The notes beneath the pieces were generated by a model, which was not told where the DNA came from, made no database searches, and saw only the letters and a program-made list of their open reading frames with translations. 64,000 nucleotides of DNA from Candidatus Niyogibacteria bacterium (GTDB lineage Bacteria > Patescibacteriota > Minisyncoccia > HO2-45-28), in NCBI GenBank assembly GCA_016432485.1, contig CP066691.1, positions 281,762-345,761 on the forward strand, in the 5' to 3' direction. The translations under genes were made by a program, and so were the position numbers. Shown here one piece after another: positions 9,009 to 31,234 of the stretch. The first letter of the stretch is position 1; every line of letters starts with the position of its first letter.

Positions 9009-9087
9009 CATATCGTAGTTCGTTAACTGGGTAGAGATGCCCCAAAACCGCCCGAGAGGGCTTCCCAGAGATGGGGAGGAGGACAAA

Positions 9088-14240: not shown

Positions 14241-14609
14241 TTATGTCGAAAAGTAATTTTTTCGGCGAGACCAAAAATCCAACGCAAGAGCTAAAGCGCC
14301 TGCCAGAAGTCCTATGTCGCGAACGGTTATGGCGTTAATTCCCGAAACCAATAAAACCAGCGCCAAATGAAGAACGGCTAAAAGCGAGGCCGTGAATGTC
14401 CAAAAATTAATCAGCAGGAAAAAACCCACCGCCAAATCAAAAATACCCGCGCCAATCATCGTTTTTTCCGGAGTAGTAAAAAGAAAATTCACGGCCCACG
14501 GCTTTATAAACCCGCTCCAGGCCGCGGGATTTTGCAAAATCAAAACGCCTATCCAGACAAAAGTAATGCCCAATCCTATTCGTAAAATATGCGCCGAGGC
14601 GGTTTTCAT
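14241..14609 (-). CDS. DoxX-family membrane protein
   Basis: Four TM helices and a DoxX-like N-terminus (LRIGLGITFVWIGVLILQNPAAW). Confidence 0.65.
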   Translation of the reverse strand: MKTASAHILRIGLGITFVWIGVLILQNPAAWSGFIKPWAVNFLFTTPEKTMIGAGIFDLAVGFFLLINFWTFTASLLAVLHLALVLLVSGINAITVRDIGLLAGALALALDFWSRRKNYFST

Positions 14610-15748
14610 AATTTTCCCTCCTTTATTTTCCGGCGTATGTTCTCCACGAATTTATTAAAACAAAAAAGATTATGCATCGTCAATAAGCGTAAGGGCGTTA
14701 TCTCCCGCGCGCGCAGCAAGTGTGAAATATAATTTCGCCTGTAATTTTTGCAGACAAAACAGGAGCAATGCTCGTCAATCGGTTTTTTATCTTTCAAAAA
14801 GCGGCTTTGGCTGAGATTGACCGGTCCGGAATTCGTAAAGGCAACTCCCGTTCGCGCGTAATGCGTGGGCACGGTGCAATCAAATGTGTCTATGCCGCTT
14901 TTAATTATAAGTTCGATGTCTTCAAGTTTGCCTATACCCAATAAATGCCTTGGCTTTTTTTCATCAAGAAGCGGGAGCGTCCACGAAATTATGTCTTTGG
15001 TTGTTTTCTTGCTTACGCCCAAATCTCCTCCGATGCCGTATCCGTCAAAACCCAGCGAATTTATAAATTTCGCGCTTTCCTGTCTCAAGTCCTTAAAATC
15101 AGAGCCCTGCGTTATGCCGAATAGCGATTGTTTTTTATTTTTTTTTGATTCCAAACATATTTTCGCCCATTTGTGGGTGCGTGCCAGAGATTTTTTAATA
15201 TAGTCCTTTGACGACAGGGGGGCGGTACATTCGTCAAAAGCAAAAATAATATCGGCGCCGAGGGCCTCCTGTATTTTTATTGATTCTCTCGGACCTAAAA
15301 AAAGCGGGCGGCCGTCCACGGGCGAACGGAAATGGACGCCGTCGTCGGTAATTTTTACCGATTTCGGCTGGGAGTGTTCTGAAATCATAATTTCTTTGCC
15401 GGATTGTCCGCTTATTTTCTTTCCCACGCCCAAGTCATGTCCAAAACCCAAACTAAAAACCTGAAATCCGCCGGAATCGGTCATGAGCGCGCCGGGCCAA
15501 TTCATAAATTGATGCAAGCCGCCGGCCGATTCAATTATTTTTTCGCCGGGCTTCAAATGCAGATGAAAAGTGTTGGCAATCAAAAGCCGGCAGCCGGCGG
15601 CCGCGGCTTCTTCCGAAGTCAAAGTTTTTACAACCGCCTGCGTCGCCACCGATACAAGGGCCGGTGTCTCAACTTCGCCGCGCTCGGTATGCAAAATCCC
15701 CAGCCGCGCCCGGCTCCTTTTTGATTTTTTAAGTATTTCAAAACGCAT
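14606..15748 (-). CDS. tgt: queuine tRNA-ribosyltransferase (tRNA-guanine transglycosylase)
   Basis: Tgt catalytic motifs (MTDSGGFQVFSL, LGIGKLED) and C-terminal Zn site CSCFVC...H. Confidence 0.9.
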   Translation of the reverse strand: MRFEILKKSKRSRARLGILHTERGEVETPALVSVATQAVVKTLTSEEAAAAGCRLLIANTFHLHLKPGEKIIESAGGLHQFMNWPGALMTDSGGFQVFSLGFGHDLGVGKKISGQSGKEIMISEHSQPKSVKITDDGVHFRSPVDGRPLFLGPRESIKIQEALGADIIFAFDECTAPLSSKDYIKKSLARTHKWAKICLESKKNKKQSLFGITQGSDFKDLRQESAKFINSLGFDGYGIGGDLGVSKKTTKDIISWTLPLLDEKKPRHLLGIGKLEDIELIIKSGIDTFDCTVPTHYARTGVAFTNSGPVNLSQSRFLKDKKPIDEHCSCFVCKNYRRNYISHLLRAREITPLRLLTMHNLFCFNKFVENIRRKIKEGKL

Positions 15749-15795: not shown

Positions 15796-15846
15796 AAATG
15801 TTTTAAATAAGGTGATGTTTTAAATAGAATGATGTTTTAAATAGGA
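15796..15846. repeat. three tandem 17-bp repeats (TGATGTTTTAAATAGRA) in the tgt upstream region
   Basis: aaatgttttaaataagg / tgatgttttaaatagaa / tgatgttttaaatagga, directly seen. Confidence 0.8.
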
Positions 15847-15860
15847 TATATTCACCTAAG

Positions 15861-15888
15861 TTTAAACTACGATATATCGTAGTTGAAA
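15861..15888. promoter_or_regulatory. 28-bp palindrome (one mismatched pair), copy 1 of the YerC-associated operator; sits in the tgt promoter region
   Basis: tttaaactacgatatatcgtagttgaaa with a perfect 20-bp core at 15865-15884. A near-identical copy lies at 16404-16431. Confidence 0.6.
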
Positions 15889-15909
15889 TAAATGCATCTG
15901 TTTTTTAAC

Positions 15910-16326
15910 TTATTCTTTATTCATCATGTCATAAAACCATTTCCATCGGCCGCGTCCTCTCGGCGGAAGACCGGCGCTCAGTAAAATTTCCAAATCGTCA
16001 ATAAATCCTCTTTTTTTCTTGGCATCAACAATAATTGCCTTTATGTTGTCAAAATCCCCGCCCCTCATCCCCTTCCACAAACGGCCTACGGTAGAAGGAC
16101 TGACCTTCAGCGTTTTTTCCACTACCGTAAAAGGGTATTTGTTAAAAAGCATCAGGATAACAGCTAAGCGTTTGGCCAGCATTATCCGTTCCGTGGACGA
16201 CAAAAGGTCACCAAAGAAAAGCCGGCCAAAATTCTTATCTTTTAAGCTGGCCATAACGGCGTAAAAACGATCATTCATTTTTAAAAATGCTTTCTTTTTT
16301 AATTTTCTCTTCGAAATATGCGGCAT
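15910..16326 (-). CDS. TrpR-like YerC/YecD-family DNA-binding protein
   Basis: LLSSTERIMLAKRLAVILML...VVEKTLKVSPSTVGRL matches the YerC/YecD TrpR-like HTH pattern. Confidence 0.6.
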   Translation of the reverse strand: MPHISKRKLKKKAFLKMNDRFYAVMASLKDKNFGRLFFGDLLSSTERIMLAKRLAVILMLFNKYPFTVVEKTLKVSPSTVGRLWKGMRGGDFDNIKAIIVDAKKKRGFIDDLEILLSAGLPPRGRGRWKWFYDMMNKE

Positions 16327-16403
16327 ATATTTATTTGTGTTTTGATATTAACATCCATACTGCCAATGCTATTAACGGTTATATTAGCTTATAAAAACCA
16401 AGC

Positions 16404-16431
16404 TTTCAACTACGATATATCGTAGTTGAAA
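16404..16431. promoter_or_regulatory. perfect 28-bp palindrome, copy 2 of the YerC-associated operator, in the yerC promoter region
   Basis: tttcaactacgatatatcgtagttgaaa; perfect inverted repeat checked base by base. Confidence 0.6.
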
Positions 16432-16473
16432 ATAGGTTGAAAATGGATTGTGAGCACTAGTAAAAGGCCTTAA

Positions 16474-16506
16474 ATAAAAAAACGCCTCGAGAAAAACTCG
16501 AGGCGA
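16474..16506 (-). terminator. intrinsic terminator
   Basis: GCCTCGAG-aaaaa-CTCGAGGC followed on the minus strand by TTTTTTTATTT, downstream of 16517-17011. Confidence 0.7.
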
Positions 16507-16516
16507 AAATCAAAAC

Positions 16517-17011
16517 TCAATTGCCGTCGGATCCTCTGCCATACGGAATTTCCGACCTCTTCTCTTCCCACTTTTCGTCAGACAAAAGATAATCTTTATA
16601 GCTTGGTCTGGTCGAGAGACCGGCCCTTTTGGCGATTCCGTGCATTTCCCAAAAACAGTGTTTACGTGCCGCGGCATTTTTCTTACATATATTCAAATTT
16701 TCCACAGCACCCCAACTCGGGGCAGGATCATCCGCCACTATCTTAGACCATCTGGCTTCGTTTTCAAATGCCGCATTAAGAAAATCGGCTTCTCGTTTCA
16801 AAGCACGGTCAACAGCACCTCGAACAATTTTTCTCCAACCATCCGCGCATCCGCAATGTCTCGGTGTAAACGGATTTATGCCAAAAGTTCTTTGGAAATC
16901 AAACAGATTTATTTCATCTTCCCACATCAGCCATCTCGGTTTGCCATGAAATAAACCCAAACAGAACCCGAATGCTACTATGATAAAGGCCAAAACAAGC
17001 AGCGCCCCCAT
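16517..17011 (-). CDS. membrane-anchored hypothetical protein
   Basis: N-terminal TM helix; Cys/Trp-containing soluble domain; no recognisable family. Confidence 0.45.
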   Translation of the reverse strand: MGALLVLAFIIVAFGFCLGLFHGKPRWLMWEDEINLFDFQRTFGINPFTPRHCGCADGWRKIVRGAVDRALKREADFLNAAFENEARWSKIVADDPAPSWGAVENLNICKKNAAARKHCFWEMHGIAKRAGLSTRPSYKDYLLSDEKWEEKRSEIPYGRGSDGN

Positions 17012-30556: not shown

Positions 30557-31128
30557 GAATAAAATAGTTCGTTTTTTGTGGTATACTTAAATGTGTATGC
30601 CAAAAGAAAAACGAACATACGCCGACCGCCGAGAGTATTTAAAAATGGCAGTGACCAAAAGACGACGAAGATTAAAAACACTGCTTGTAGAATATAAAGG
30701 CGGGAAATGCACGGTCTGCAGTTATAATAAAACCCCGTGGGCAATGGATCTTCATCATGTTGATGAATCCAAGAAATCATTTGATATGTCCTCACGCGGA
30801 CTTACCCGCTCATGGGAACGTCTTAAAAAAGAGGCAGATAAGTGTGTGTTGCTTTGTGCAAATTGTCACAGAGAAATACACGCCGGCGTAACGCAGCTTC
30901 CTAAAGTAATTTAGGTTGAAAAATCTCGGGATAACGGTGAAGCCCTAAATCTTTTGCATTAGATTGGGTAATACCGTGGGAACCTTTGCTTGTTCGGGGT
31001 TTACTCCGAGCGAAGTCGAGGAGCGCCGTAGAGACTAGATACCGAGATCCCGCCATTCATTTGAAATATTATTTAATGGAGGGGGGGAAAGATATAGTCC
31101 AACCCTAAAAGTAATTTTAGGACCGTTG
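30557..31128 (+). mobile_element. group I intron (about 572 nt) with an embedded HNH homing-endonuclease ORF
   Basis: Lies between tRNA halves. Exon 1 ends in T and the intron ends in G (accgttG). P7-like pairing GAGACTAGA / GATATAGTCC, with the latter close to the Tetrahymena AGATATAGTCGG segment. P9-like hairpin CCTAAAAgtaaTTTTAGG just before the 3' splice site. Confidence 0.6.
30591..30914 (+). CDS. HNH homing endonuclease (intron-encoded)
   Basis: CTVCS...DLHHVD...CANCHREIH HNH/zinc-finger motif; 107 aa, basic. Confidence 0.75.
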   Translation: MCMPKEKRTYADRREYLKMAVTKRRRRLKTLLVEYKGGKCTVCSYNKTPWAMDLHHVDESKKSFDMSSRGLTRSWERLKKEADKCVLLCANCHREIHAGVTQLPKVI

Positions 31129-31234
31129 TAAGGAGTTGGTTGTAGGTTCGAATCCTACCTGCGGAGCCAATAAACTAGATACGAACTCATTTTTTGAAGA
31201 TTAGACCTCTATCAGAGGTCGTATCCAGCGCGGT

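Follow-up and report, generated by a model that had tools for sequence, protein, structure and literature searches.

A TrpR/HisR-fold regulator gene of Patescibacteria bracketed by two copies of a palindrome, the probable operators of its own product

We analysed a stretch of 64,000 nucleotides from Candidatus Niyogibacteria bacterium (assembly GCA_016432485.1, contig CP066691.1, positions 281,762 to 345,761), referred to here as the window. It contains a minus-strand gene at 15910–16326, encoding a 138-residue helix-turn-helix protein of the TrpR/HisR fold, which is flanked on both sides by copies of the same palindrome. Because this protein family and the palindrome occur together and vary together, we consider it likely that both palindromes serve as cognate operators for the protein encoded between them, which is presumed to be what binds them. 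Autoregulation of the gene, which the initial annotation had proposed, is a well supported prediction, based on the position of one operator on the −35 element of the gene's own promoter, the conservation of the bracket among relatives, and the co-variation of palindrome and protein.

The 20-mer AACTACGATATATCGTAGTT is a perfect palindrome and occurs exactly twice in the whole window, at 15865–15884 and 16408–16427. No further copy was found in the window with up to three mismatches allowed, and 100 shuffles of the window gave no match. The upstream copy, in the promoter of the regulator gene, extends to a perfect 28-bp dyad at 16404–16431 (TTTCAACTACGATATATCGTAGTTGAAA, with halves TTTCAACTACGATA and TATCGTAGTTGAAA), whose centre is 91.5 bp from the regulator start codon. 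The downstream copy (TTTAAACTACGATATATCGTAGTTGAAA, 15861–15888) has 13 of 14 pairs, with one mismatch in the outer arm; its edges are 21 bp past the regulator stop codon and 113 bp ahead of the start codon of the next gene, tgt. Both palindromes have an 11-6-11 layout, and the dyad centres are 543 bp apart. Exact counts, shuffles and coordinates thus confirm the earlier description of two palindrome copies bracketing a TrpR-like gene. The sequence shared by the two copies ends at the palindrome, with only background similarity between their flanks, and we therefore rejected the possibility that they are a duplicated promoter or the ends of a mobile element. A direct repeat of 47 nt (81%) in the window is not a general feature.

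The predicted regulator promoter (16381–16409, minus strand) has a −35 element TTGAAA (16409–16404), a 17-bp spacer, and a −10 element TAATAT (16386–16381), and the −35 element is the outer arm of the upstream palindrome. The earlier placement of a palindrome in the regulator's own promoter is therefore supported, and an operator that overlaps the −35 element implies repression. The layout is kept in L339, the closest relative available (76% identity), where TTGAAA within the palindrome arm is followed by 17 diverged bases and then, as read from the sequence, by GATAAT at the matching place. L339 keeps both palindromes, and the rest of its intergenic DNA has diverged; in its upstream intergenic region, the palindrome block is the only stretch conserved with the window. 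The dyad centre in other lineages is mostly only 12–45 bp from the ATG; nine loci have a −10 element that coincides with the half-site TA(T/C)GAT or with the centre of the palindrome. We note that the outer arm of the upstream palindrome in the window is tandemly doubled at 16425–16446 (GTTGAAAATAG and GTTGAAAATGG), which generates an extra TTGAAA beside the operator, on the side facing away from the regulator gene.

The bracketing is conserved among relatives. Each of four orthologous loci, with 48–56% identity, has the 14-bp core TACGATATATCGTA both upstream and just downstream of the gene, and the neighbouring genes at these loci are unrelated (glmS and SHMT; a cation ATPase; RsmE with a convergent open reading frame). 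Further relatives were collected by a protein-based metagenome scan, which gave 80 loci totalling 722 kb, reducing to 66 distinct genes. In these loci, the core TACGATATATCGTA with up to two mismatches is found 12–56 bp before the start and 18–85 bp past the end of the protein match, and is nearly absent from the remainder of the 10 kb on either side. Loci without this core have another palindrome instead, identical on the two sides, as identified by an unbiased palindrome search. When strict limits were applied (perfect arms of at least 7 bp and identical 14-mers, located no more than 130 bp upstream and 150 bp downstream), 43 of the 66 distinct family genes were bracketed by an identical perfect palindrome, whereas no such bracket was seen around any of the 409 control genes taken from these loci. 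The median distance from the dyad centre is 26.5 bp to the ATG on the upstream side and 31.5 bp to the stop codon on the downstream side, and the spacing between centres is mostly 429–502 bp in the relatives. Only two extra sites, with at most one mismatch to the core of the locus, were found elsewhere in the roughly 720 kb of family loci. The gene context is stable within clades, as in the orders ThrRS-type aminoacyl-tRNA synthetase, regulator, gyrB and glmS, regulator, SHMT. We also retrieved 10 assemblies of the same strain from different samples, which are identical over an 821-bp region and have a single orientation; because there is no variation among them, they are uninformative.

The palindrome occurs in at least nine types (TACGATATATCGTA, TATGATATATCATA, TATCATATATGATA, TACAGTATACTGTA, ATACAGCGCTGTAT, CTCGATTAATCGAG and others), and the type always matches between the two sides of one gene. 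It also follows the recognition helix of the linked protein: the helix SPST is paired with the half-site TACGAT (type TACGATATATCGTA), TRQT with TATGAT (type TATGATATATCATA), SPAT or SYAT with TATCAT (type TATCATATATGATA), and SPVT..K with TACAGT (type TACAGTATACTGTA), while the types known from one locus each go with other recognition helices. The variable residue of the helix directly precedes an invariant Thr, at a position that we take, from our knowledge of the family, to be probably equivalent to Ala80-Thr81 of TrpR. All the types are dyads without a gap, and their centres (ATAT, TATA, TTAA or GCGC) are self-complementary, as would be expected for recognition of duplex DNA by a two-fold symmetric dimer but not for an RNA hairpin loop.

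On the 706-kb contig Ga0208375_1000003, one genome has a pair of regulator paralogues, L139 and L158, each with its own palindrome variant: one is bracketed by GATACGATATATCGTATC on both sides and the other by GCTTCGATATATCGAAGC on both sides, with half-sites of the TAC... and TTC... kinds. This suggests that the two paralogues have diverged in specificity and thereby avoid cross-talk.

The sole Pfam match of the 138-residue protein is to Trp_repressor (PF01371), over residues 19–86, and scores 33.5 bits where the gathering cutoff is 27. The AlphaFold2 model is all-helical, with a mean predicted local distance difference test score (pLDDT) of 82.7 overall and above 90 over residues 11–100. Its top Foldseek matches are 3KOR, 3FRW, 3G1C and 1TRR/1TRO, with probabilities of 0.97–1.0 and target-normalised template modelling scores of 0.70–0.84. 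A profile search of the Protein Data Bank gave significant matches only to HisR/YerC-type structures, led by 3KOR (E = 2e-8) and followed by 3FRW and 3G1C. The protein is therefore a member of the TrpR family, by both family model and fold. The initial annotation had described the gene as a TrpR-like YerC gene; the first part of this description holds, but the YerC label is too specific, because the score against the YerC/YecD model (NCBIfam TIGR02531) is 25.7 bits, below the equivalog cutoff of 42.2, because the protein has 138 residues rather than fewer than 100, and because its operator is unlike the HisR (YerC) consensus. The regulator is related to HisR/YerC and to TrpR, but is not a YerC orthologue.

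The sequence of the protein starts with MPHISK and contains the recognition helix VSPSTVGR and a basic C-terminal motif, GLPPRGRGRWKW. The family alignment shows homologues to be approximately 130–145 residues long and to share the MPHISK N-terminus, the helix-turn-helix (TERIMLAKRLA ... LKVSPSTVxR) and the basic GLPPRGRGRWKW motif. A profile search of 1.84 billion representatives found 1,690 cluster representatives (50% identity) at E ≤ 1e-10, and all the named sources of family members are lineages of the Patescibacteria, or candidate phyla radiation (CPR). The identical protein is annotated in a metagenome-assembled genome (MAG) of Candidatus Niyogibacteria, on a contig of 836,981 bp, and is also found on 16 contigs of groundwater runs. 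The C-terminal extension and the conserved operator-gene-operator layout make this a distinct subfamily and a variation on the theme of TrpR/HisR regulators and their operators. We found no description of the motif or the subfamily in the searchable literature, which is itself incomplete, so that this is absence of evidence only.

The best characterised relative is YerC of B. subtilis, which is the histidine repressor HisR and has fewer than 100 residues (PMC9413887). Members of the HisR/TrpR family recognise 20-bp palindromes, and autoregulation is frequent among them; the operators of HisR itself are lineage-specific 20-bp palindromes with the consensus cacTTTAnnnnnnTAAAgtg, and HisR is autoregulated in about half of genomes (PMC9413887). 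The regulator described here resembles HisR in its closest solved structures, in being a small all-helical helix-turn-helix protein, in its 20-bp palindrome, and in having an operator before its own gene, as HisR often does. It differs in its length of 138 residues, with two or three additional C-terminal helices and the conserved basic GLPPRGRGRWKW tail, and in its operator, which is AACTACGATATATCGTAGTT (core TACGATATATCGTA or lineage variants) and not cacTTTAnnnnnnTAAAgtg. It differs also in having a second operator past the stop codon and no his genes nearby: none was found among the Pfam families of 62 downstream and 57 upstream neighbours. It shares with TrpR of E. coli, whose operators are those of trpR, trpEDCBA and aroH, the fold (Foldseek probability 0.97–0.99), a dyad operator overlapping the promoter, and, as predicted here, negative autoregulation, although the identity is only 12–17% and the trpR gene is accompanied by one operator rather than a flanking pair. 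Two invariant residues of the recognition helix (xxT..R), a Thr and an Arg, are probably the counterparts of Thr81 and Arg84 of TrpR, as we infer from the family alignment together with PMC9413887. A pair of identical or similar operators a few hundred bp apart is also a feature of looping repressors such as GalR (OE/OI), LacI (O1/O2), DeoR and AraC (O2/I1). These belong to unrelated families, and their distal operators are inside or upstream of the regulated operon, whereas here the pair encloses the regulator gene itself and looping is only proposed.

We propose the following mechanism. A dimer of the protein would bind each dyad through its helix-turn-helix, and binding at the upstream operator, which overlaps the −35 element, would repress synthesis of the protein itself. 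Operator, gene and operator would form a self-contained unit, with the second operator just past the stop codon. The presence of two similar operators around a transcription unit suggests cooperative binding, and the second operator probably cooperates with the first by looping, or else forms a protein-bound roadblock where the gene ends on its 3′ side. The 3′ operator of this genome could also modulate read-through into tgt and the DoxX-like gene that follows it, since there is no canonical terminator between; such an effect on tgt may occur, but it lacks comparative support and would be peculiar to this locus rather than what the site is conserved for.

Several observations weigh against the identification of the palindromes as autoregulatory operators. 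Shared ancestry partly confounds the co-variation of palindrome type and helix. The arms of some palindromes measure 17–24 bp, which is more than a single helix-turn-helix dimer needs, and in 28 of 47 loci no sigma-70-like promoter is detectable upstream. Helical phasing of the operator pair, with p ≈ 0.006 at 10.4 bp on the raw data, is not significant once related loci are collapsed. There are solo copies of the palindrome elsewhere, about 65 among the matches listed in the scan described below, which are biased towards the 3′ ends of genes in a way that a classical promoter-operator model does not predict. Finally, the role of the operator past the stop codon is one that we infer. The co-variation and the near-exclusive linkage to the gene nevertheless make the predicted operator assignment strong despite the phylogenetic confounding.

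To describe the copies that are found elsewhere, GTDB genomes were scanned for exact matches to the 18-mer ACTACGATATATCGTAGT, which gave at least 120 stretches, with 147 sites among the matches listed. All of the listed stretches are from Patescibacteria MAGs (Saccharibacteria, Nomurabacteria, Paceibacterota, Adlerbacteria, Kaiserbacteria, Moranbacteria and others). The 147 sites comprise 35 that flank a family gene, about 50 coincidences within coding sequence, and about 65 intergenic solo sites. Among these listed matches, solo sites are mostly 10–30 bp past a stop codon; 34 are between co-directional genes, 13 between convergent genes, and one between divergent genes, and about a quarter have flanking A-runs and T-runs. 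Some genomes hold a bracketed regulator as well as several solo sites. The genes beside solo sites have no functional theme (they include a Na/Ca exchanger, a TP_methylase-domain protein, Rpe, PriA, DNA polymerase III delta′, MazG, GatC and DUF1653) and no recurrent unknown family. Two small genes in other Patescibacteria MAGs, unrelated to each other and encoding a DUF1653 protein (L320, 1805–2387) and GatC (L304, 3819–4435), are each bracketed by two exact 18-mers, so that the bracket is not strictly exclusive to the regulator gene. In a Saccharibacteria MAG (SRP141376_co3_12; L263, 1–800), a family gene has two 18-mers downstream and five upstream, 55–64 bp apart and arising in part from a 64-bp tandem duplication. 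Two more arrays, of three sites each (L223, 5975–6140, and L273, 2562–2707), are found in this MAG, one of them beside a tRNA-Ile gene.

The initial annotation placed the downstream palindrome in the promoter of tgt, and suggested a regulon consisting of the regulator and queuine tRNA-ribosyltransferase, with a set of 17-bp repeats as additional binding sites. The gene tgt (14606–15748, minus strand; TIGR00430, 440 bits), encoding tRNA-guanine(34) transglycosylase, is the co-directional downstream neighbour of the regulator, and is overlapped by the DoxX-like gene (14241–14609, minus strand). Together with the 164-residue open reading frame upstream, the regulator and tgt form a run of three co-directional minus-strand genes. 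The distance of only 113 bp from palindrome to tgt favours this regulon, as does the result of a terminator scan, which found no canonical terminator between them. Among relatives, moreover, the downstream gene is co-directional in 25 of 62 loci (for example ArgRS in the TATGATATATCATA clade), and neighbours are often related to tRNA or translation (aminoacyl-tRNA synthetase genes, RsmE, TsaE and GatB). However, the copy past the stop codon is present whatever gene follows, implying that it is part of the regulator's own conserved architecture, and the next gene is convergent in the remaining 37 of the 62 loci; the gene before the regulator is co-directional in 48 of 57. The neighbours are clade-dependent housekeeping genes (gyrB, ArgRS, DapF, a ThrRS-type synthetase, GAPDH, SHMT and RsmE), and TGT does not rank within the 25 Pfam families most frequent among the neighbours (62 downstream and 57 upstream, with 47 and 30 families matched). 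When the Tgt of the window was compared by tblastn with 1.63 Mb of site-containing loci, only two tgt genes were found, one 6.7 kb from the site and the other (in L246) with a terminator and a GC-rich region led by a promoter between it and the site; a tgt gene is near a palindrome site in only 1 of 208 loci. Within the window, the best promoter-like match of tgt (TTGAAA-16-AATAAT, 15780–15753) has its −35 element approximately 97 bp downstream of the centre of the site, and L339 keeps the site with 190 bp available downstream that contain neither tgt nor the 17-bp repeats, and no promoter after the site.

The 17-bp repeats are a genuine tandem repeat (ATGTTTTAAATARRRTG; 2.8 copies with 90% matches at 15798–15844, or 2.8–3 units at 15798–15848) that separates the downstream palindrome from the promoter-like match of tgt, and they are identical in all the same-strain assemblies. 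Their proposed role as extra binding sites is unlikely: the window has no other good copies, and they are not present in the 94 bp available past the downstream palindrome of L339. Judged by these comparisons, any link between tgt and the palindrome is specific to this genome. We therefore regard a regulon of this kind as unlikely and rejected tgt as a conserved target, since its neighbourhood is not conserved and TGT falls outside the commonest neighbour families. The idea that queuosine modification of tRNA is under control of the regulator was tempting but is unsupported, and is corrected here. As a separate observation, the stretch of L246 from 140 to 500, between the solo site with its terminator and tgt, has a promoter-like TTGACA-17-TACACT and then approximately 300 nt that are rich in GC and terminate in a T-run; it resembles a structured RNA gene, with no Rfam match at gathering thresholds.

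Three other explanations were considered. The palindromes might be a dispersed element of the repetitive extragenic palindrome (REP) or miniature inverted-repeat transposable element (MITE) kind, with the gene as a cassette similar to REPtrons, in which a RAYT gene is flanked by REP palindromes, or they might bound a segment for recombination in the manner of hix/Hin or pdif. The gene is indeed bracketed by palindromes of 11-6-11 layout; solo copies, like REPs, are found at unrelated loci, at the 3′ ends of genes and between convergent genes; arrays of 3–7 copies occur in one Saccharibacteria MAG; and the DUF1653 and GatC genes are bracketed too. The protein, however, is an all-helical helix-turn-helix protein, with no HUH (Y1 transposase), serine recombinase or tyrosine recombinase domain in a Pfam scan, the AlphaFold2 model or the Foldseek comparison. 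In contrast to REPs, the palindromes are perfect gap-free dyads. Their copy number appears very low, with two in the 64-kb window and two solo sites in about 720 kb of family loci. The gene context is stably inherited within clades, there is no similarity beyond the palindrome, and, in contrast to Hin and Xer modules, the segment has one orientation in all 10 independent assemblies of the strain. A mobile element is thus very unlikely. The earlier concern that the palindrome might prove to be a dispersed repeat applies only weakly, since solo copies exist but are rare, with those two around family genes.

An equally improbable explanation is that the palindromes act as RNA, forming protein-independent terminator or stabiliser hairpins at transcript ends. 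It is consistent with the position of sites just past stop codons, with the A-run and T-run flanks, resembling those of a bidirectional terminator, of about a quarter of the listed solo copies, and with a terminator scan that weakly flags the upstream copy in the window (tail CTTGGTTTTT, 4 GC pairs). Yet the same 14–18-mer is kept across Saccharibacteria and Paceibacterota, so that the sequence and not only the structure is conserved, and the type co-varies with the linked protein. A Rho-independent terminator, which has a GC-rich stem, a non-palindromic loop and a 3′ U-tract, also differs from these sites in that all palindrome types have self-complementary centres, and only 4 of 47 downstream copies qualify as canonical terminators, other terminators there being also rare. 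In the window copies the 5′ arm is rich in T and the 3′ arm rich in A, opposite to what a terminator shows, and the scan did not flag the downstream copy. The upstream copy is not needed as a terminator for the gene before it (16517–17011, minus strand; 164 residues, with no family match), because this gene already has a canonical intrinsic terminator at 16505–16483 (minus strand; 9 pairs, 7 of them GC, and a T-run).

Because of the 3′-end bias of the solo sites, we considered also that the palindromes could constitute a gene-boundary system found throughout Patescibacteria and programmable by sequence, in which protein bound past stop codons would act as a roadblock or insulator. This appears improbable, though better placed than either of the two preceding explanations. 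In this reading the bound protein would serve as a factor-dependent terminator, or as a shield against convergent transcription, for its own gene and a few others, at sites placed mostly between convergent or co-directional genes and hardly ever between divergent ones. The flanking pair would then both insulate and autoregulate the regulator's own gene.

Regulators are few in the very small genomes of CPR bacteria, and hardly any has been characterised together with its operator. With the operator assignment proposed here, a large family of Patescibacteria gains a predicted operator that is precise to the base pair in each lineage. The family provides a natural series of recognition helices and operators that evolve together, with an unusual, conserved arrangement in which an operator stands on each side of the gene.

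A few other occurrences of the palindrome sequence deserve mention. The half-site TATCGTAGTT at 9011–9020 (plus strand) is located directly after a promoter, TTGCAA-17-TATAAT, as described previously, but it has no dyad partner, and its left half agrees with the full site at only 1 of 10 positions. The remaining matches to the 10-mer half-site in the window outside the two palindromes have one mismatch each, and the copy at 9011–9020 is probably a chance occurrence. Matches to the 14-mer core on viral contigs are mostly single-copy and chance-like, among the matches listed. At many loci (L219–L338), the 18-mer ACTACGATATATCGTAGT is part of a coding sequence and is translated as LRYIVV (in reverse transcriptases, among others; one example is the motif VFLS.DK..LE..LRYIVVFL) or TTIYRS (in the MurD-like context ...TGTDR......TTIYRS); genome-wide operator scans will therefore pick up false positives in coding sequence. 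In L336 (1–140), the palindrome around the 18-mer is perfect for at least 71 bp in each arm, up to the edge of the stretch; this is a natural inverted repeat of great length or else a fold-back artefact of assembly.

Elsewhere in the window there is a full-length group I intron at 30815–31121 (plus strand; Rfam RF00028, 57 bits); the window has no rRNA match and no ARAGORN tRNA. A matching tRNA 5′ half was not found, in an exact search for GCTCCGC only, and splicing trials gave no tRNA call. Just 3′ of the intron, at 31145–31185, is a sequence resembling the 3′ half of a tRNA, with a T-arm GGTTCGAATCC followed by ...CTGCGGAGCCA, and the combination of the two suggests a tRNA gene interrupted by the intron.

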